From: Clostridia bacterium
Lineage (GTDB): Bacteria; Bacillota; Clostridia; Oscillospirales; CAG-272
Reading direction: 5' to 3'
DNA length: 42,393 bases
NCBI GenBank assembly: GCA_017625915.1
Contig: JAGAJV010000062.1
Coordinates: 1 to 42,393 of the forward strand
Shown: piece by piece, positions 2,836 to 42,393 of the stretch
Position numbering within the stretch: position 1 is the first letter of the stretch
Layout: every line of letters begins with the position of its first letter
Made by a program: the position numbers and the translations under genes
The notes under the pieces: model-generated
Told to the model about the DNA's origin: nothing
What the model saw: only the letters and a program-made list of their open reading frames with translations
The model's database searches: none

Positions 2836-4365
2836 TTATACCCTTTTCCAAGCACGAGGATTAAATAAAATCAGTACCGGCAAAATTTCAAGTCTGCCAA
2901 TCAACATAGTAAATGTCAAAATCAGCTTAGAAAATGCATTATAATCTGCATATGATGCGTAAGGACCGACTGCCTCAAAGCCAGGACCTATATTAGAAAT
3001 ACAAGCCAAAGAAGCAGAAAAGTTAGAAAAGAAGCCGTGCTCGTTTACGTCACTGATAGGGTCAAAGGAAAGAAGCAATGTTGCAGTTAAAAGTATAAAA
3101 AGGTAAAGAGTAATAAAGGAGAAAACATCGTTAGTTGTCTTTTCCTCTAGGCTTTTGCCTTCAAACTTAGCCTTAGGCACATATCTGGGATTAATCAGCT
3201 TTCTTACGTTAATAAATGTACCCTTTACAGCTATAACAATTCTTGATAGCTTAATACCGCCGGCTGTGGAGCCTGCCATAGCACCGGTAAACATAAGCAG
3301 AATAAGCACCATTTTAGAAACCATCGGCCATAAATTAAAGTCCGTTGTAGAATATCCCGTTGTTGTCATAATAGATGCAATTTGAAACAGTGTATGCCTA
3401 AATGCTTCTTCAATGGAATATCCTAAGGATTCTAGCCTTAAGCACAAATTTACAAAAACTAAAGCAACACTGGATACTATGATAATTAGATAGCATCTGA
3501 ATTCCTCGCTTCTAAACACCTCTTTAATTTTACCCAACAAAATTAAATAGTATAAACCAAAATTGCAACCAAAAATAAGTAAGAAAATAGAAATTACATA
3601 TTGTGCATACGGTGTCATAAATTCCATACTGTTAGGTATAAAGCCAAAGCCACCGGTGCCTGCCGAGCCAAAGCTTGTAAGCAAAGCGTGGAAAAGCTTA
3701 TCACCCTCATAAGAGCTATAACCGGCATCGGTAAGTGCATCATGGTTAATTAATGGACCGCATAATAGGAAAATAACCTCTAAAACTGTAAGACAAAGAT
3801 AAATAAGATACAAAATTCTTGCAGTTACCTTCATTTTAGAAGCAATTTTACCCACCTGAGGACCGGGAGATTCAGCACGAAGAAGATGCATTGAGGAGCC
3901 GTCATCACTTTCAGGAATGAAAATAAGCACGAATACAAGTATTCCCATGCCGCCAATCCAGTGTGAAAAGCTTCTCCAAAATAGAGAGGAATGTTCCAAA
4001 ACAGTAATATCCTTAAGAATACTTGCGCCGGTTGTTGTAAAGCCGGACATAATTTCAAAGCAAGCATCAATGTAGTTTGGAATATCTCCATTTATAACAA
4101 ACGGAATAGCACCGAAAACAGTCATTACTATCCAAACTAATGCAACAAGTGCGAAGCCCTCTTTTTGATAAAGAGATTTTCTCTTAGGCTTAGGCTTTAG
4201 CATTAAGCCGCCCAATACCGTTAAAGCAATAATAGGAATTATAAAGGCAAGCTTATATTTTAATTCTTCCCCGTAAATAAAGCTTACGATTAATGGAGCA
4301 AGCATCAAAGCTCCCTCAATAATCATAATCCTTCCTAAAATCCTACCGATTAGTTTAAAATTCAT
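2836..4365 (-). CDS. trkH: TrkH family potassium uptake protein
   Basis: 509 aa polytopic membrane protein with TrkH-type motifs (MSGFTTTGAS, GSAGTGGFG, MTTTGY, AGSTAGGIK); RBS aaggtga. Confidence 0.85.
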   Translation of the reverse strand: MNFKLIGRILGRIMIIEGALMLAPLIVSFIYGEELKYKLAFIIPIIALTVLGGLMLKPKPKRKSLYQKEGFALVALVWIVMTVFGAIPFVINGDIPNYIDACFEIMSGFTTTGASILKDITVLEHSSLFWRSFSHWIGGMGILVFVLIFIPESDDGSSMHLLRAESPGPQVGKIASKMKVTARILYLIYLCLTVLEVIFLLCGPLINHDALTDAGYSSYEGDKLFHALLTSFGSAGTGGFGFIPNSMEFMTPYAQYVISIFLLIFGCNFGLYYLILLGKIKEVFRSEEFRCYLIIIVSSVALVFVNLCLRLESLGYSIEEAFRHTLFQIASIMTTTGYSTTDFNLWPMVSKMVLILLMFTGAMAGSTAGGIKLSRIVIAVKGTFINVRKLINPRYVPKAKFEGKSLEEKTTNDVFSFITLYLFILLTATLLLSFDPISDVNEHGFFSNFSASLACISNIGPGFEAVGPYASYADYNAFSKLILTFTMLIGRLEILPVLILFNPRAWKRV

Positions 4366-23774: not shown

Positions 23775-23857
23775 GCGAGAGTGGCGGAATCGGCAGACGC
23801 GCACGTTTGAGGGGCGTGTGGGCAACCGTACGGGTTCAAGTCCCGTTTCTCGCACCA
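23775..23857 (+). tRNA. tRNA-Leu (anticodon GAG), class II with long variable arm, encoded CCA
   Basis: Acceptor GCGAGAG / TTCTCGC, anticodon stem CACGT / GCGTG with loop TTGAGGG, variable arm, T-arm ACGGG-TTCAAGT-CCCGT, 3' ACCA. Confidence 0.9.
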
Positions 23858-35670: not shown

Positions 35671-38400
<2,730 letters not shown>

Positions 38401-38410
38401 AATACAACAA

Positions 38411-38448
38411 AAAGGATAGAGCAAATAGCCCTATCCTTTCGTTTTTTA
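38411..38448 (+). terminator. Intrinsic terminator
   Basis: Stem aaaggatag-gc / gc-ctatccttt, followed by cgtttttt. Confidence 0.6.
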
Positions 38449-38480
38449 TTATCGTAAATTAATAAGTGATCCCTTGTATT

Positions 38481-38775
38481 AAACAAAAATGACTAAGTCG
38501 GCAACACGGTCCCGTGTGTCGGGCTTAGTCATAGGTGGTCGAGATGACAGGAAGCATCGCAATAAATTGCTCGTAACACTTCGCGCGCAAATCGTGAGCG
38601 AGCTCCCATTTGCTTCGCTCGCTAGGCGCACCTGATTCAACTTGCGTTGAAAGCAGATGCGAACAGTCAACACAAACAAAAAAATCCTAAACCGAACATA
38701 AAGTTCAATTTAGGATTTTTATGGTCGAAGTGGCGATACCCGACTCGAACCTGCCAGAAAAAGTGTTTTGAAGCC
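38481..38775 (-). ncRNA. Unclassified structured-RNA-like element, copy A (core 38535-38727)
   Basis: 193-nt core about 93% identical to 41733-41927. On the minus strand: a 12-bp hairpin with U7, then a 4-way junction (P1 GCAUC/GAUGC, P2 UUCAAC-GCAA-GUUGAA, P3 GUGCGC/GCGCGC enclosing AGCGAGC/GCUCGCU, P4 short variable hairpin), then its own terminator (38491-38530 plus U-run). Overlapping ORF 38479..38679 judged non-coding. Confidence 0.6.
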
Positions 38776-38869
38776 TTTTGACATAAGGATTTAGGGCATA
38801 TTTATACTGGCAAAATAAAAATAGTTTTTGTAAAAAAGCAGATATTTGAAAGTATTTTTACGCAAAATA

Positions 38870-38898
38870 TTGATTTTTAAATAAAAATGTGCTAAAAT
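38870..38898 (+). promoter_or_regulatory. Candidate promoter for a short plus-strand transcript
   Basis: TTGATT (38870-38875), 17-nt spacer, TAAAAT (38893-38898); a plus-oriented terminator lies ~70 nt downstream. Confidence 0.4.
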
Positions 38899-38932
38899 AA
38901 AATCACGACTAAGTGGTGTGCTTTAGCATATC
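38891..38932. repeat. 42-nt direct repeat DR1 (partner at 40420-40462)
   Basis: gctaaaataaaatca-cgactaagtggtgtgctttagcatatc versus gctaaaacatatcatacgactaagtagtgtgctttagcatatc; contains inverted TGCTAAA...TTTAGCA. Confidence 0.7.
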
Positions 38933-38936
38933 ACAC

Positions 38937-38975
38937 AAGCATCAAAACTATTGGCGTAGTTTTGATGCTTTTTTA
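38937..38975 (+). terminator. Plus-strand-oriented intrinsic terminator
   Basis: 14-bp stem aagcatcaaaacta / tagttttgatgctt with loop ttggcg, followed by tttttt on the plus strand only. Confidence 0.6.
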
Positions 38976-38994
38976 TTTTTAGAAATCAAACCTT

Positions 38995-39333
38995 TCATTT
39001 TTCTATAAAGTTTACATTATTTGCACATATTTGTATATTATGATAAGAGCCAGTGACATCACTTTCAACACAAATATTAATTGAATTGTCTAATAATTCA
39101 ACCTTTACTATTTCATCGCTATTGATTTTGTAATTGTCATATGTGCAATTAGAACAATTAGAAAACTCAATTAGAACAATTCCGGTTTCTTTTTCACCAT
39201 CTTCAAAGGATGATTGTTGCCAATAGCAGAAATCAATTTCGAGACAAACGATATTGGCTGCTTTATCATAAGAAATGTCTTCAAGCAAACTACCTATTAG
39301 ATAGACTTTATTTATAAATTCTTTTATTGTCAT
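38995..39333 (-). CDS. Small acidic cytoplasmic protein, candidate immunity/antitoxin partner of the upstream gene
   Basis: Start moved to ATG 39333 (MTIKEFINK...), preceded by aaaggagg, 13 nt after the upstream stop; 112 aa, no signal peptide, no recognised family. Confidence 0.5.
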   Translation of the reverse strand: MTIKEFINKVYLIGSLLEDISYDKAANIVCLEIDFCYWQQSSFEDGEKETGIVLIEFSNCSNCTYDNYKINSDEIVKVELLDNSINICVESDVTGSYHNIQICANNVNFIEK

Positions 39334-39346
39334 TGTATACCTCCTT

Positions 39347-39682
39347 TTATGGTATAATGTGAGAAGCTTTTGAGTTTTTTGGCACGGGATTACCATTTTT
39401 ATCTAAATAATAATCGTGTTTTCCAGTGGAGTTGGGATTTAAAACATGGTAGTGGTCTTTTCCACCGTAGCCTCCTTGAGAGGCATCTCCTTTATCATAC
39501 CTTATGCTTAATCCATCTTTGTTTGTGTACATTTTTGAAGTAGTATTTTGCGACATACTAACAGGTGTAGTTTCTTTCCAGCCTTTTTCCAAAAGTTTAT
39601 TGGGATTTTTAGGCAAACTTTTTATAGTGGAGCGAATAGCACCACGAGAACCCGAATATCCTCCTGACATTCCTGAACCCAT
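39347..39682 (-). CDS. Small (111 aa) Gly/Ser-rich-N-terminus protein resembling a stand-alone polymorphic-toxin C-terminal domain
   Basis: MGSGMSGGYSGSRGA... then GW...LSIRYDKGD...GGKDHYHVLNPN...YYLDKNGNPVPKNSKASHI. The layout recalls small nuclease/RNase toxin CT domains (weak, by eye). ATG overlaps the upstream stop (TAATG), with an RBS aggagg inside the upstream gene. Confidence 0.5.
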   Translation of the reverse strand: MGSGMSGGYSGSRGAIRSTIKSLPKNPNKLLEKGWKETTPVSMSQNTTSKMYTNKDGLSIRYDKGDASQGGYGGKDHYHVLNPNSTGKHDYYLDKNGNPVPKNSKASHIIP

Positions 39683-40353
39683 TATAAATTCCTCCTTCGT
39701 TTAGTACTTATCCAGTCCGGATAGTTTACAAAGTCGGTTTTGTGCTTGAATTCATCAAATACGGAATTGGGCATAGCTCCGTAAACAAGTACAACTGTCG
39801 GTTCCAACTCATCAAGCATGGCTTTTAGACCTTCTCTAAAGTAGTGCTTGTTTTCTTGTCCTCTAATACAGCCATATGTGCTAATTGACACAATACTACG
39901 TTTGGGAACGCCTAAAAACGCAAACTTTTCAGGCAATTCTGTGGTGGTATAGCTTCGTTCATCTCCCCAACGAATATTTGGAATAACATATAACCCTTGC
40001 GCTTGCAAAAAGCTTCCAACTGCTCGGTTCATATATGTGTTTGCAATTTGCAAGCACAGAGGCATATCTCTATATAGAGAACAGTCTGGAGATATAATTG
40101 CAGAGAACTTCGAGAGCTCTGATAAGAAATTTTTTGTGCTTGTTAAAACATCAGAAAATTTTATATCATGCTCGTAAAAGTGAACGGCTTCAGTTTTGTC
40201 TTTGCTTCGTTTGATTTGAGTAAAAGGAATAACGGATTTTGGAATTATAATTTTATCGGGTTTTTTAATAACTGGTATTTCAAAAATACCATCAAAAAAA
40301 GCACTAGAAACGAGTTCGGAATTGAACCCATCATCTACTAAGTTTTTATTCAT
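39682..40353 (-). CDS. DUF4417-like protein, function unknown
   Basis: 223 aa; pattern HFYEHDIKF...ISPDCSLYRDMP...NRAVGSFLQAQGLYVIPNIRWGDERS...VSISTYG recalled as DUF4417-like, from memory and not verified. Confidence 0.55.
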   Translation of the reverse strand: MNKNLVDDGFNSELVSSAFFDGIFEIPVIKKPDKIIIPKSVIPFTQIKRSKDKTEAVHFYEHDIKFSDVLTSTKNFLSELSKFSAIISPDCSLYRDMPLCLQIANTYMNRAVGSFLQAQGLYVIPNIRWGDERSYTTTELPEKFAFLGVPKRSIVSISTYGCIRGQENKHYFREGLKAMLDELEPTVVLVYGAMPNSVFDEFKHKTDFVNYPDWISTKRRRNL

Positions 40354-40419
40354 GATATGTAACCTTTCTCCTCTAATAAAGAGGGATTTTTATTTTTAAA
40401 ATAGTTTAAAAAAGGGTAG

Positions 40420-40462
40420 GCTAAAACATATCATACGACTAAGTAGTGTGCTTTAGCATATC
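40420..40462. repeat. 43-nt direct repeat DR2 (partner at 38891-38932)
   Basis: About 85% identical to DR1, located 67 nt upstream of the DUF4417-like start codon. Confidence 0.7.
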
Positions 40463-40483
40463 CTTGCAATATTGGTTTTTGTT

Positions 40484-40521
40484 TTGTCAAGAGTAGTTGG
40501 CGCTAATCTTGACATTGTCAA
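40484..40521. promoter_or_regulatory. Cluster of TTGTCAAG / CTTGACA / TGTCAA half-sites including the perfect palindrome TTGACAtTGTCAA (40509-40521); candidate repressor operator
   Basis: Inverted repeats in the 200-nt gap between the ImmA gene and the DUF4417-like gene. Confidence 0.4.
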
Positions 40522-40556
40522 CAATCATAGTACATCACTCCTTTTAAAGTTTGTTT

Positions 40557-41081
40557 TTAATATTTTAATCTTTTTTTAGCAGCGGATTCAGAAACCCCAT
40601 ATGTGTTCATTAGTTCATTGATAGTCATGTTTTGAGTTGATTCATATGGCATCATAACTTCACCAGCTAGAGCCATAACTATCCATTCTATCCTTTTGTA
40701 TAAAGGAACATCTTGAGTTAGTTGACGAGAGAAAACAGGTTTAAAACCAAGCTTGTCAGCGAATGCATGCATGATTTCGTGCATAATATGCATGCGATGT
40801 CCACCTACCTTTTTTTCAAACGCTCCATTATAAACTGATTCCTTTATTTGAATTAGGTAGCCACTATCGTCAACAGAACATTGTGCGGGAACGTTTTTAG
40901 GTAAAACATTATTGTAAACAACATCATATCGCACATCTTCAAATCCTTCAAAATCAGGGAGCTTATCCAATAACTTTACAGGATCGACAGGTTCGTTTTC
41001 AGATAGTCCACAGATTGAACGGAACAATTTAGAATAAAGTCGAAGCTCATAACGGTTGGTTGCTTTAGTTTCGTAATCCAT
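40557..41081 (-). CDS. ImmA/IrrE family zinc metallopeptidase
   Basis: HEXXH motif (MHIMHEIMHAF), 174 aa, translationally coupled (TAATG) to the upstream HTH gene, the classic ImmR-ImmA arrangement. Confidence 0.8.
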   Translation of the reverse strand: MDYETKATNRYELRLYSKLFRSICGLSENEPVDPVKLLDKLPDFEGFEDVRYDVVYNNVLPKNVPAQCSVDDSGYLIQIKESVYNGAFEKKVGGHRMHIMHEIMHAFADKLGFKPVFSRQLTQDVPLYKRIEWIVMALAGEVMMPYESTQNMTINELMNTYGVSESAAKKRLKY

Positions 41082-41443
41082 TAATTTTCCTCCTTGTTAA
41101 GAAGTTTAATAATGGCAGCCGCTGTATCATCATCGAGCTTGTCAAAGGAACGCTGAAATTGCACAGCGAGATTTCTCTGAGAATTGCTAGCAGAAATAAG
41201 ATTAACTTTAACTTGGGTTTTTGAATATTCAACAGCTTCAATTAGTTCAGCTTGCTCTTGCTCATTTAATTGGTAGTGTGTGATTAGGATAGGAATCCAT
41301 TCATCGGGAACATTTCTTTTTCCGTTTTCGACGGTGGAAACAAAGGGAATCTTAACATTGAACAGTTTTGCAGTATCTCCCATTACCTCATGATGTTTAA
41401 CTCGTTGTATTCGCATAAATTCTCCAAATTTAGTATAGCTCAT
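41081..41443 (-). CDS. XRE-family helix-turn-helix transcriptional regulator
   Basis: HTH_3-like N-terminus (FGEFMRIQRVKHH..MGDTAKLFNVKIPFVSTVENGKRNVP). The second ATG (41443) has better spacing to aaaggag than the ORF-track start 41449. Confidence 0.75.
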   Translation of the reverse strand: MSYTKFGEFMRIQRVKHHEVMGDTAKLFNVKIPFVSTVENGKRNVPDEWIPILITHYQLNEQEQAELIEAVEYSKTQVKVNLISASNSQRNLAVQFQRSFDKLDDDTAAAIIKLLNKEEN

Positions 41444-41470
41444 ATTCATTCTCCTTTCCTGTTTGATTCA

Positions 41471-41499
41471 AGTATATCATAAGTTTACCTAAAAGTCAA
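41471..41499 (-). promoter_or_regulatory. Sigma-A-type promoter of the XRE-ImmA operon
   Basis: On the minus strand, TTGACT, 17-nt spacer, tgaTATACT (extended -10). Confidence 0.55.
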
Positions 41500-41690
41500 T
41501 AATTAATTTAACCTTTTTTTGATTAATTTTCGCAAAAGGATAAAAAAAAGACGAGTGAGCAACTCATCTTTAAGTAAATTGAGGTTCGAATCCTGCGTGA
41601 TAGACTGTGAGTTTCGAACTTTTTAGAAAAATGTGCAAATAAATTTGTGAATGTTTACCAAAATAAATGTTCATAAAATGTACAAATTAA

Positions 41691-41975
41691 ACAAAAAAGC
41701 AACTGAAATTTCAAAAGAAATTCCAGTTGCAAGTGGTCGAGATGACAGGAAGCATCGCGTACTACGTTGCTCGTAACACTTCGCGCGCAAATCGTGAGCA
41801 AGCCCACATTTGCTTCGCTTGCTAGGCGCACCTGATTCAACTTGCGTTGAAAGCAGATGCGAACAGTCAACACAAACAAAAAAATCCTAAACCGAACATA
41901 AAGTTCAATTTAGGATTTTTATGGTCGCAATGAGCCACCCTCAGTTGAACACCCTATTAAAAAGTGCAACAAACC
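41691..41975 (-). ncRNA. Unclassified structured-RNA-like element, copy B (core 41733-41927)
   Basis: Same architecture as copy A. P3b is AGCAAGC/GCUUGCU here versus AGCGAGC/GCUCGCU in copy A (a compensatory double change). It has a different P4 tip and a different terminator hairpin (41699-41730), followed by the same uuuuuguuuaau tail. Overlapping ORF 41655..41879 judged non-coding. Confidence 0.6.
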
Positions 41976-42300
41976 CATATAGCAAAAGGAGTTTTGTGAC
42001 TTTTTTACGAGGCGGAATTTTTTAGAAAAATGTAAATCGTATATCAAAAAGACCTCAAAAATATCACTTTTTGAAATTTGAGATTTTTATTTTAAGGGTG
42101 CAAAGACACAGATTTCAAGAGTGCAAAAAAGTAAAATTAAAGTTGCACTCTTTTGATTGAAAATCAGCAGATGTGCTGAAAATTTGGCACTACTGCTTTG
42201 AGAGGAATAAATTGCTCAAATGAGATTGTATAAGAAAAGATTTTATGATATAATAAAATATCAGTTAATCAATTAAAGAAGAAAGGTATGTATCAGTGAT

Positions 42301-42393
42301 ATGAAAAATTGCGACATCCATATTCGTGACCCATTTGTTATATTTGAAAACGGACGATACTATATGTATGGAACACGGGGCAAAAATTATGGC
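42301..42393 (+). CDS. Glycoside hydrolase family 43-like protein, N-terminal 31 codons (runs off window)
   Basis: MKNCDIHIRDPFVIFENGRYYMYGTRGKNYG: the RDPF...G.YY.YGT motif is typical of GH43 N-termini. The RBS is weak. Confidence 0.55.
   Translation, partial: MKNCDIHIRDPFVIFENGRYYMYGTRGKNYG

Follow-up and report, generated by a model that had tools for sequence, protein, structure and literature searches.

Introduction

Among the hot spots at tRNA genes are the Islander tDNA islands and the Prochlorococcus 'tycheposons', which, as outlined in the preprint, are arrays of cargo without an integrase that are flanked by partial tRNAs (bioRxiv 10.1101/2020.12.28.424599). Here we analyse a comparable locus in a contig of 42,393 nucleotides from a Clostridia bacterium (JAGAJV010000062.1 of assembly GCA_017625915.1; the whole stretch is called the window), in which an element near the 3' end occurs in two copies, A and B, and was described from sequence alone in an initial annotation as an unclassified structured RNA. 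As far as the tDNA islands and tycheposons are outlined in that source, the locus resembles them in its anchoring at a tRNA gene, in the copy of a tRNA 3' end at each junction (here 17 nt, or CGACCA only), in cassettes that vary between strains and in cargo that has no integrase of its own; a block from the 3' end of the tRNA is repeated at the element boundaries downstream of an intact tRNA-Pro, as at tDNA sites. It differs from the partial-tRNA repeats described there by a unit of about 140 nt with covarying helices, a pseudoknot, its own terminator and conservation across species, and from the partial-tRNA arrays by tandem units without cargo and by the fact that no integrase was seen in the unit-bearing loci. 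Integrase-less arrays with partial tRNAs are known in principle, but a conserved, pseudoknotted repeat unit that mimics an acceptor end is not. We found no description of the element in the literature on DUF4417, on partial-tRNA arrays and on tRNA-like or tRNA-Pro motifs.

On the other hand, tRNA-like domains are also found within larger RNAs, for example the tRNA-like domain of transfer-messenger RNA (tmRNA) and the bacterial Y-RNA-like YrlA. The unit is similar to these in that its paired ends form an acceptor-like stem with a single-stranded NCCA, while the interior is replaced, including by a pseudoknot. Unlike them, it has no T, D or anticodon arm and no tag open reading frame (ORF), and it is present in several copies linked to one tRNA gene; unlike tmRNA, it escapes both ARAGORN and the tRNA and tmRNA models of Rfam.

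We favour the reading, with a probability of about 55%, that the core of the element consists of a terminator and a member of a new structured noncoding RNA (ncRNA) module derived from tRNA-Pro, which would also recreate a tRNA 3'-end insertion site. In the following, we describe the anatomy of the element, identify its tail as the 3' end of tRNA-Pro, and document its covariation, its strand and its positions at cassette junctions. On sequence comparison, the decisive identities that the initial annotation missed are that the tail with its CGACCA is the tRNA-Pro 3' end, that the 5' extension is a degenerate tRNA-like segment and that the first hairpin is the terminator of that segment.

The repeat and the tRNA-Pro origin of its ends

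The core, about 193 nt on the minus strand, extends over 38535-38732 and is repeated at 41733-41932 with 94-100% identity. The repeat search of the window gave a block of 175 nt (38558-38732 and 41758-41932, 94%) and a block of 26 nt (38535-38560 and 41733-41758, 100%), and in the pairwise alignment the identity between copies A and B collapses beyond these limits. The recurrence that had been claimed for the core (38535-38727 at 41733-41927) is therefore borne out by both methods, including the hexamer CGACCA at both ends. All features named in the initial annotation exist at their coordinates, and the identity of some pieces is revised below. The units have a GC content of 0.50-0.55 compared with 0.25-0.30 in the neighbouring spacers, and the window contains 12 terminator-like sites when 2.4 are expected.

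The tail of copy A, TCCTGTCATCTCGACCA (38536..38552, minus strand, as for all features of the array below), is identical in 17 of 17 positions to the 3' end of the tRNA-Pro(UGG) of the species, which was located at 4331-4406 of contig L049. It consists of the 3' strand of the T stem, the 3' strand of the acceptor stem, the discriminator A and CCA. The corresponding tail of copy B runs from 41750 to 41734. The ending ...CAUCUCGACCAC had already been noticed, as had the P4 hairpin next to it, and both are present.

A preceding tRNA or tRNA-like segment ends in the CGACCA that marks the 5' edge of the core. In the window, this hexamer belongs to a degenerate tRNA-like stretch of about 150 nt, which we call the left segment. 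Left segment A occupies 38722..38870 and ends in CACTTCGACCA, its CGACCA running from 38727 to 38722, and left segment B occupies 41922..42070 and ends in CATTGCGACCA, with CGACCA from 41927 to 41922. Left segment A contains GCAGGTTCGAGTC, which matches the T arm of tRNA-Pro, GCAGGTTCGAATC, in 12 of 13 positions. The 'T-loop-like' hairpin reported in a 5' extension at 38728-38775 is thus present, but the extension is actually a part of the left segment. Such segments precede every unit that is not directly behind a tRNA-Pro gene, that is, both copies in the window and units in L003, L006, L008, L010 and L053. In L001, L005, L007, L009 and L053, the element stands directly behind the terminator of tRNA-Pro. 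Of the 13 unit-bearing loci that were checked, 9 have a tRNA-Pro(UGG) gene upstream in the same orientation; all units are co-oriented with tRNA-Pro, mostly at a distance of at most a few kb, and each begins right after a '...CGACCA' end. All junctions lie at CGACCA, the shared last hexamer of tRNA, left segment and unit, and directly after it a terminator, a unit or a cassette starts.

The left segments also share a 4-bp CCTT-N7-AAGG hairpin, which is conserved in the window (38780-38800 and 41975-41995) and in L003, L006, L008, L010, L049 and L053. Its loop resembles an anticodon loop, with T at position 2 and a purine at position 6, and the middle triplet varies among the copies (GTC, GTC, GCT, ACT, AGC, GGC and GCC). 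That the left segment is a real tRNA was considered and rejected, as neither ARAGORN nor Rfam supports it and the T stem is unpaired despite the hairpin similar to an anticodon arm. Whether the 5' segment of the unit is an antisense T arm is ambiguous: its TTCGA core reads as a palindrome, and an alignment in the sense orientation is about equally good.

Each unit is separated from the preceding CGACCA by a terminator. Upstream of unit A, it lies at 38670..38721 (AAAAATCCTAAA...TTTAGGATTTTT followed by a U tract; called from 38720 to 38680), and an identical terminator of left segment B lies at 41880..41921 (called from 41920 to 41880). This is the hairpin of 12-18 bp (AAAAAUCCUAAA) with a U7 tract that the initial annotation placed first within its folded RNA. 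The hairpin does exist and is called as a minus-strand intrinsic terminator in both copies, but it terminates the preceding element and lies outside the unit; the same terminator is also found directly 3' of genuine tRNA-Pro genes in L005 and L007. Downstream of the units, the terminators are copy-specific, as had been described. Terminator A (38481..38532, with 38532 to 38489 recognised by eye) is a hairpin of about 21 bp, ATGACTAAG...CTTAGTCAT, with a U tract, and its type also occurs 3' of units in L003, L004, L006, L010 and L053. Terminator B (41699..41730, called from 41730 to 41699; GCAACTGGAATTTC...GAAATTTCAGTTGC with a U tract) abuts unit B and forms the left end of the cassette between the copies.

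Relatives and database searches

A 20-mer from the P2 hairpin described below was used as a probe and matched 8 Clostridia species represented by metagenome-assembled genomes (MAGs), which are titled Eubacteriales, Clostridia or Oscillospiraceae. A gapped pattern search added 3 metagenome contigs, and contigs of the window's own species were reached through the exact DUF4417 protein. In total, 27 distinct related units were collected from the 8 MAG species and the metagenome contigs, in agreement with the earlier suggestion of paralogues. A covariance model, R1, was built from 11 of the 27 units. It gave 28 matches of 29-157 bits, all on the tRNA-sense strand, and none in the control loci; in the window, there are exactly two matches, 38535-38673 and 41733-41873, both on the minus strand. 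Two subtypes can be distinguished. Subtype I, to which the window copies belong, has the form ...GCGCCUAGC-46 nt-GAAGUGUUACGAGCA-P4-GCGAWG..., and subtype II has the form ...GCGCAAAAUUGCCC...GGGCAAUUCAACGGAACGCAGUGGAGUCAUCC.... Judged from these matches, the module is confined to a small clade of gut and rumen Clostridia.

The Rfam and Infernal check that had been proposed left the element unclassified. With Rfam 15 at the gathering threshold, the only match in the whole window is a tRNA-Leu; this tRNA-Leu(GAG), with a long variable arm at 23775-23857, is also the only tRNA that ARAGORN finds in the window, and it is unrelated to the units. At E<=10, the region 37500-42393 gives only weak matches driven by terminators and far below threshold, and at E<=1 only the genuine tRNA-Pro genes are matched in L001, L003 and L008. 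ARAGORN reports no tRNA or tmRNA at either copy, and no Rfam tRNA or tmRNA model matches the units or left segments.

Two other origins were tried and rejected. For a phage or plasmid origin, the P2 20-mer had 0 matches in viral contigs and blastn against phage and plasmid collections was empty; there were 37 matches of a 15-mer in viral sequences, but these are chance matches, none of which matched the unit by nhmmer. For a protein-coding ORF, the 2-nt indel in P4 breaks the frame shared by A and B, and the translation of 66 aa has no homologue. A protein-database search with the ORF that spans the unit, as a handle for further copies, gave no candidates.

Some relatives depart from the standard length. 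L005 (4250-4530) and L008 (800-870) have large insertions in the central domain that contain a piece resembling a tRNA T arm (GGGGGTTCGATTCTC or GGGGGTTCGCG). A motif of L005, TATGCAYGGGAGCGTAGCGAGTCGCAGT, recurs upstream of the tRNA-Pro gene of this locus.

Secondary structure and covariation

Unit A is of type I, about 140 nt long, and occupies 38535..38673 (157 bits with the covariance model, E = 2e-41). Unit B, also of type I and with the same architecture, occupies 41733..41873 (144 bits). In unit A, the closing stem P1 pairs 38672-38666 with 38548-38542, P1' pairs 38658-38654 with 38634-38630, and P2 consists of 38651-38646 and 38641-38636 with a GCAA loop. The central part is formed by PX (38629-38626 with 38586-38583), H1 (38623-38617 with 38603-38597) and the pseudoknot helix H2, in which GCAAAU (38613 to 38608) pairs with AUUUGC (38592 to 38587). 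The small hairpin P4 pairs 38570-38567 with 38562-38559 and is 2 nt longer in unit B.

In the closing stem, the 5' end of the unit, (A)GAUGAC, pairs with GUCAUCU of the tail and leaves (G)ACCA unpaired, as in a tRNA acceptor. The corresponding pairing in units of L001, L003 and L053 is 5' (U)GAGAUGAC with GUCAUCUC(G)-ACCA. The variants keep the pairing: besides AGAUGAC/GUCAUCU, there are the compensatory AGAUGAU/AUCAUCU in L006, and UGCGG/CCGCA and UGGG/CCCA in L049. An acceptor-type helix followed by a discriminator and CCA is found, of which 78% is paired across the family, and a closing stem of 9 bp is recovered by minimum free energy (MFE) folding in L053 and L001.

P2 varies in sequence, with eight different perfect stems of 6-7 bp among the units (UUCAAC/GUUGAA; UUUGCGA/UCGCAAA; UUUUGC/GCAAAA, which occurs with three loops; UUCAAGC/GCUUGAA; UUCAAGU/ACUUGAA; and UUUUGCC/GGCAAAA). 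The loops are GCAA, GAUA, GUUA, GACA, CUUG, UUU and UUG, mostly GNNA or CUUG. The first of these stems, with the GCAA loop, is the P2 described from the window, and the GCGC/GCGC helix described with it is also present. P2 is extended by P1', ACCUG/CAGGU throughout the family and AUCUG/CAGGU in the window. This clashes with the helix GCAUC/GAUGC that the initial annotation had drawn as its own P1. That helix exists in the window-type copies only and was discarded as a family feature, since in most relatives the 5' partner reads GACCUG and is paired to CAGGU instead; its exact drawing of a four-way junction is accordingly not conserved either.

With 45-48 nt in all copies, the type I centre can be aligned nearly without gaps (alignment A3). 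It contains PX (GCGC/GCGC), H1 (AGCGAGC/GCUCGCU) and H2. Of these, H1 is the inner hairpin that had been described, and a G-C to A-U compensatory change distinguishes copy A from copy B within it. H2 was absent from that description; it crosses H1 and thus gives an H-type pseudoknot. Its sequences are GCAAAU/AUUUGC in the window, GUCGAU/AUCGAC in L049 and L053, and GUGU/ACAC in L006, and in the other classes they are AGCC/GGCU, AGUC/GGCU and AGUC/GACU. In A3, 82.6% of the cells of the centre are paired compared with 22-50% when the partners are slid, and all 6 of the 6 pairs of H2 are changed on both sides. The covariation score of A3 is 0.33 compared with 0.18, and 0 of 500 shuffles reach 0.33, although these controls overstate significance because the sample, of roughly 8 species, is small and non-independent and many copies are mosaics. 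For the whole unit (A4 and A5, of which A5 was fitted to the model), 86-88% is paired compared with 26-39% when slid, and double changes occur in 10 to 17 pairs. The covariation therefore backs P2, the inner hairpin and the outer GC helix of the initial annotation, together with its view of the element as an RNA-like structure on the minus strand. Of the helices listed for unit A, the comparative data support P1, P2, PX, H1, H2 and P4.

The strand can be read from the same alignments. There are 26 G-U pairs and 11 A-C mismatches, which favours the tRNA-sense strand, and only on this strand do the loops become stable RNA tetraloops. Most of the units are followed by a terminator on this strand. 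Two other pairings came from the folding programs. RNAalifold pairs GCGCCUAGC with GUUACGAGC, of which both sides are invariant. A helix of 8 bp from MFE folding, GAAGUGUU/GAUGCUUC, was rejected, being lost in units with the tail GCGAAGUCAUCC.

Variation of the arrays between genomes

The arrays differ considerably between closely related genomes. L049, which extends the window's own genome past its end, begins in tRNA-sense order with a strong promoter and tRNA-Pro, followed by terminator, unit, terminator, unit, terminator and a gene for a MocA-type oxidoreductase on the opposite strand. Next come a third left segment without a unit, a GH43 gene on the opposite strand, and left segment B with its terminator and unit B. 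The last part consists of terminator B with the island between the copies, left segment A, a terminator, unit A and terminator A. The third left segment (L049 6200-6480, between the MocA-type and GH43 genes and roughly 1 kb past the 3' end of the window) ends in ...GGTTCGAATTAGGTGTCGCCACTTCGACCA, and its CGACCA is followed directly by a terminator of the ATGACTAAG type, with neither the AAAAATCC terminator nor a unit. The core thus behaves like one discrete block that is inserted or deleted between CGACCA borders.

L049 and L053 are 98.5-98.6% identical to the window over the island region and carry different cassettes between tRNA-Pro and the units. The order in L053 is tRNA-Pro, unit, an inverted second DUF4417 island, left segment and unit, the window-type island, and again left segment and unit. 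In L003, the GH43 flank is 96% identical; tRNA-Pro is followed by two units, and where the window has two copies and the island, L003 has only one left segment with its unit. In L007, two units are back to back. Units may also be mosaic: the third unit of L053 combines the 5' part of the window unit with the centre of the first L053 unit, and such mosaics, on sequence comparison, point to frequent recombination among units. Across the related loci, the cassettes occur in both orientations with their own promoters and regulators.

A closely related island in L064 shows where the boundaries lie. It is inserted between tRNA-Pro(CGG), which ends in ...CTCCGACCA (reading '...CCGACCA'), and its own left-segment-like end ...TTGTTCGACCA (reading '...TCGACCA'), and its DUF4417 is 91% identical to that of the window. 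There is no unit in this island; hence the island proper excludes the unit, the island occurs after CGACCA ends of the tRNA-Pro type, and in the window it is the tail of unit B that holds the position of the tRNA 3' end. By the same comparison, left segment A is the right-hand end of the 3.0-kb island. That the unit is itself part of DUF4417 islands was rejected, because the islands of L059-L070, with DUF4417 proteins 66-91% identical, contain no unit by nhmmer or by the covariance model. The earlier idea that the element marks the site of the island agrees with L003, where there is one unit and no island, and with L064, where the related island is directly 3' of tRNA-Pro(CGG).

No recombinase was found that could account for these rearrangements. 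A recombinase domain was found neither in the island proteins or scanned window ORFs nor in the precomputed Pfam lists of L049-L058, and integrase, transposase, TnpB, IscB, IS110 and reverse transcriptase were all absent from the scanned window proteins and the precomputed annotations of the unit-bearing loci. TnpA, TnpB, IscB, IS110 and Cas were not recognised in the scanned window ORFs or among the genes called in some 30 related loci. The sole integrase-like match among these loci is an N-terminal Phage_int_SAM fragment in L070, which has no units. Beside tRNA-Pro no recombinase was found, the two genes upstream of it in L049 encoding a radical-SAM-like protein and an unknown protein.

Interpretation and alternatives

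In the arrays, a module always starts right after the '...CGACCA' of a genuine tRNA-Pro(UGG), of a degenerate left segment or of another unit. It consists of the intrinsic terminator of that tRNA or pseudo-tRNA and a GC-rich unit of about 140 nt, mostly with its own terminator after it. The unit is predicted to fold into a closing stem with the tRNA tail, a long P1'-P2 hairpin, a core of 46 nt (PX, H1 and H2) and the small P4. According to the tRNA-Pro-derived ncRNA reading, the RNA would be made by read-through from the strong promoter of tRNA-Pro or of the pseudo-tRNA and matured at its tRNA-like ends. The functional core, which probably binds protein, would then be formed by the conserved junctions AAUCAGGUGCGCCUAGC and GCGAAGUGUUACGAGCA. 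As DNA, each unit would regenerate the '...TCGACCA' end after which cassettes occur and would supply about 190 bp of homology, so that modules may propagate the insertion site and mediate the gain, loss and shuffling of cassettes. A recreated tRNA 3' end and this homology would account for the units at every cassette boundary and for the mosaic units. The two copies in the window would then be modules that flank one XRE/ImmA/DUF4417 cassette.

Several points weigh against this reading. Each unit lies downstream of a good terminator without a promoter of its own, so that its transcription depends on read-through, and as no recombinase was found, the DNA-level role is taken from positions only. 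P1 of the window (GUGUUGAC) is degenerate, with 5 of 7 pairs in both copies, and the central variants of types c, d, e and g fit H1 and H2 only partly. The MFE of the window units is only weakly better than that of shuffled sequences (z = -1.5 and -1.8); the support for the structure is comparative, not thermodynamic. To this must be added that the helices were derived from the same sequences on which they were evaluated. Furthermore, a folded single strand of DNA would yield the same covariation and, as G-T pairs, the same bias. Nevertheless, RNA is favoured by four lines of sequence evidence: interleaved helices that covary, a strand bias, tetraloops, and a terminator behind most units.

The same observations must be weighed against a pure DNA recombination scar, in which the units would be attL/attR sites or fused P and P' arms of elements targeting tRNA-Pro. 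Proteins would bind the inverted repeats as palindromes, and the units would have no function as RNA. Such a scar would be expected at cassette junctions, where the units are, and a 17-nt identity with the tRNA 3' end is a typical residue of islands that target tRNA genes. T-arm fragments and cassettes in both orientations also fit, as does the analogous layout at tRNA-Arg in L068, in which a 25-nt direct repeat of the tRNA 3' end follows at a distance of 176 nt, beside an inverted T-arm copy of 15 nt and a DUF4417 island. However, the interleaved H1 and H2 remain complementary through differing sequences (GCAAAU/AUUUGC, GUCGAU/AUCGAC and AGYC/GRCU), while a fixed binding protein would keep the sequence and not the pairing. 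Neither the strand-specific excess of G-U, the loops that form stable RNA tetraloops nor the terminator after most units is expected of a scar, and the only integrase-like match in about 30 related loci is the L070 fragment, at a locus without units. We therefore regard a scar without RNA function as unlikely, though it deserves some weight.

Improbable, though compatible with an RNA function, is a non-autonomous mobile element, such as a miniature inverted-repeat transposable element (MITE), a palindrome-associated transposable element (PATE) or an element similar to a short interspersed nuclear element (SINE), in which the block would be placed after CGACCA by a transposase or reverse transcriptase encoded elsewhere. 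A unit accompanies the left segment in the window but is missing from it in L049 (about 6425) and L064, copies are tandem in L007, and CGACCA is at both ends. Units of the L003 type have the terminal inverted repeat TGGTTGAGATGAC...GTCATCTCGACCA, and the module boundaries coincide with RNA-processing sites, just past the upstream CCA and at the unit's own CCA. The units share with MITEs and PATEs, as with omega-RNAs and the bridge RNAs of IS110, a small size, multiple copies, terminal inverted complementarity and insertion by a fixed short sequence; they differ from all of these in that no cognate transposase, TnpB or IS110 gene was recognised, all copies lie clustered in a single array, and both a variable guide and Rfam similarity are lacking. 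No transposase, TnpB or reverse transcriptase was recognised in the scanned proteins or called genes; the copies are clustered near tRNA-Pro and not dispersed, their mosaic structure fits homologous recombination, and the 5' terminator part varies between modules, which would not be expected for a transposed block.

One may go further and suppose that the terminator and unit together are the active agent of cassette capture, without an integrase gene of their own, a proposal that we consider unlikely. The RNA derived from tRNA-Pro, or the folded DNA strand, would then copy or target itself to ...CGACCA ends, either through an RNA intermediate whose ends are cut by the enzymes of tRNA processing or by recruiting a recombinase that acts in trans. 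With each insertion a further landing site would arise, which would build up tRNA-Pro-(unit-cassette)n arrays and allow cassettes such as DUF4417 toxin islands to pass between species. The tRNA-Arg layout of L068 would be a second instance, matched to another tRNA.

A site similar to the attC of integrons, folding as single-stranded DNA, with tRNA-Pro in the role of attI and a recombinase in trans that reads the structure of the units, would explain the array form tRNA-Pro-(unit-cassette)n. Like attC sites, the units are repeated at each cassette boundary, structure is conserved above sequence (here in P2 and H2) and no recombinase is adjacent; the outermost helix adjoins the junction CGACCA. 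Clusters of attC sites lacking a nearby integrase (CALINs) are known, which also counts for such a site. On the other hand, the cassettes are in both orientations with their own promoters and regulators, tandem units have nothing between them, and the ends are derived from a tRNA. The GTTGAAT in P2 of the window is not kept in the variants GTCGCAA, GCAAAA and GCTTGAA, so that a conserved R'/R'' (GTTRRRY) core is lacking. An IntI-like gene is absent as well, and the flanking terminators would be superfluous at an attC-like site. In view of these differences, an attC-like site is distinctly improbable.

A guide-RNA scaffold similar to omega-RNA or bridge RNA, steering a nuclease or recombinase to the 3' end of tRNA-Pro, is very unlikely; the related proposals of the initial annotation, which also included a PATE of the IS200/IS605 type, are not supported. 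In favour of a scaffold, the 3' end of the unit is a sense copy of the tRNA-Pro 3' region, the 5' segment could be read as antisense (ambiguously, given the palindromic TTCGA), the compact pseudoknotted core is about the right size and the flanking copies in L068 match tRNA-Arg. However, no TnpA, IS110, TnpB, IscB or Cas gene was recognised in the scanned window ORFs or the called genes of the related loci, no Rfam model of such RNAs matched, and R1 does not match the L068 element. The variable guide flank that had been suggested is also missing: the sequence 3' of the unit is one of a few terminators. Finally, a cis-regulatory leader or riboswitch, although also a structured GC-rich intergenic element ending in a terminator, is scarcely credible here, as the downstream genes differ at every locus and are mostly convergent, and the units occur in tandem and directly behind tRNA genes.

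If the ncRNA reading is true, the units constitute a new bacterial ncRNA family that combines a mimic of the acceptor end with a pseudoknotted core; each genome has several diverged copies of it, linked to one tRNA gene. Even if it is not true, the locus is a cassette array that varies between strains and lies downstream of tRNA-Pro in uncultured Clostridia of gut and rumen, at which cassettes of the toxin/immunity type and for sugar utilisation come and go without a visible integrase. Whether the units are RNA genes, structured recombination sites or both would show how such arrays form, and might reveal a tRNA mimic or a recombination signal of a new kind. Further copies can be sought directly with the covariance model R1.

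The cassette between the copies and related islands

The 3.0-kb cassette between units A and B (38722..41733) contains, in order, its own terminator, a sigma-70-like promoter, a gene for an XRE-like helix-turn-helix protein (41449-41081; a weak match), an ImmA/IrrE-like M78 peptidase (41081-40557), DUF4417 (40353-39682; E = 8e-52, similar to a PHROG annotated as nuclease), two small ORFs and left segment A. The small ORFs, of 111 aa and 133 aa, have no family match. At its left end is a piece (41547..41640) that consists of a partial copy of the 5' part of a left segment, an antisense T arm of tRNA-Pro (AGGTTCGAATCCTG on the plus strand) and a terminator (41571 to 41547). In L064, the counterpart of this piece (904-945) has a 13-nt inverted T-arm-like pair, AAAGTTCGAATCC / GGATTCGAACCTT. 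The T-arm-like repeats at the left end of the island could be protein-binding or recombination sites.

In the homologous islands of L059-L070, the DUF4417 genes are preceded by XRE and ImmA or by Fic regulators. The slot after DUF4417 is occupied by a toxin-type domain, which is EndoU, Ntox50, DUF6883 or PBECR1, followed by small ORFs similar to immunity genes. DUF4417 islands adjoin the tRNA genes Pro-CGG (L064), Arg-CCG (L068) and Met (L059), and in L070, BrnT/BrnA and the integrase N-terminal fragment are nearby. In L068 (1299-1600), tRNA-Arg(CCG) and a terminator are followed by an element of 176 nt. The first 15 nt of this element are a perfect inverted copy of the T-arm and acceptor region, and its last 25 nt repeat the tRNA 3' end without mismatch. 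The inverted piece recurs, as a 16-nt copy, on the far side of the adjacent DUF4417 island (3586-3601). As R1 does not match it, this element is at best an analogue of the unit and not a homologue.

A direct repeat of 28 nt, ACGACTAAGTRGTGTGCTTTAGCATATC (96%), at 38905-38932 and 40435-40462 brackets the block of DUF4417 and the 111-aa and 133-aa ORFs in the window, with one copy upstream of DUF4417 and the other just past the last gene. It may be a boundary of a sub-cassette for the swapping of toxin and immunity genes, or an operator, and it is conserved in L064 at 2062-2089 and 3591-3618.

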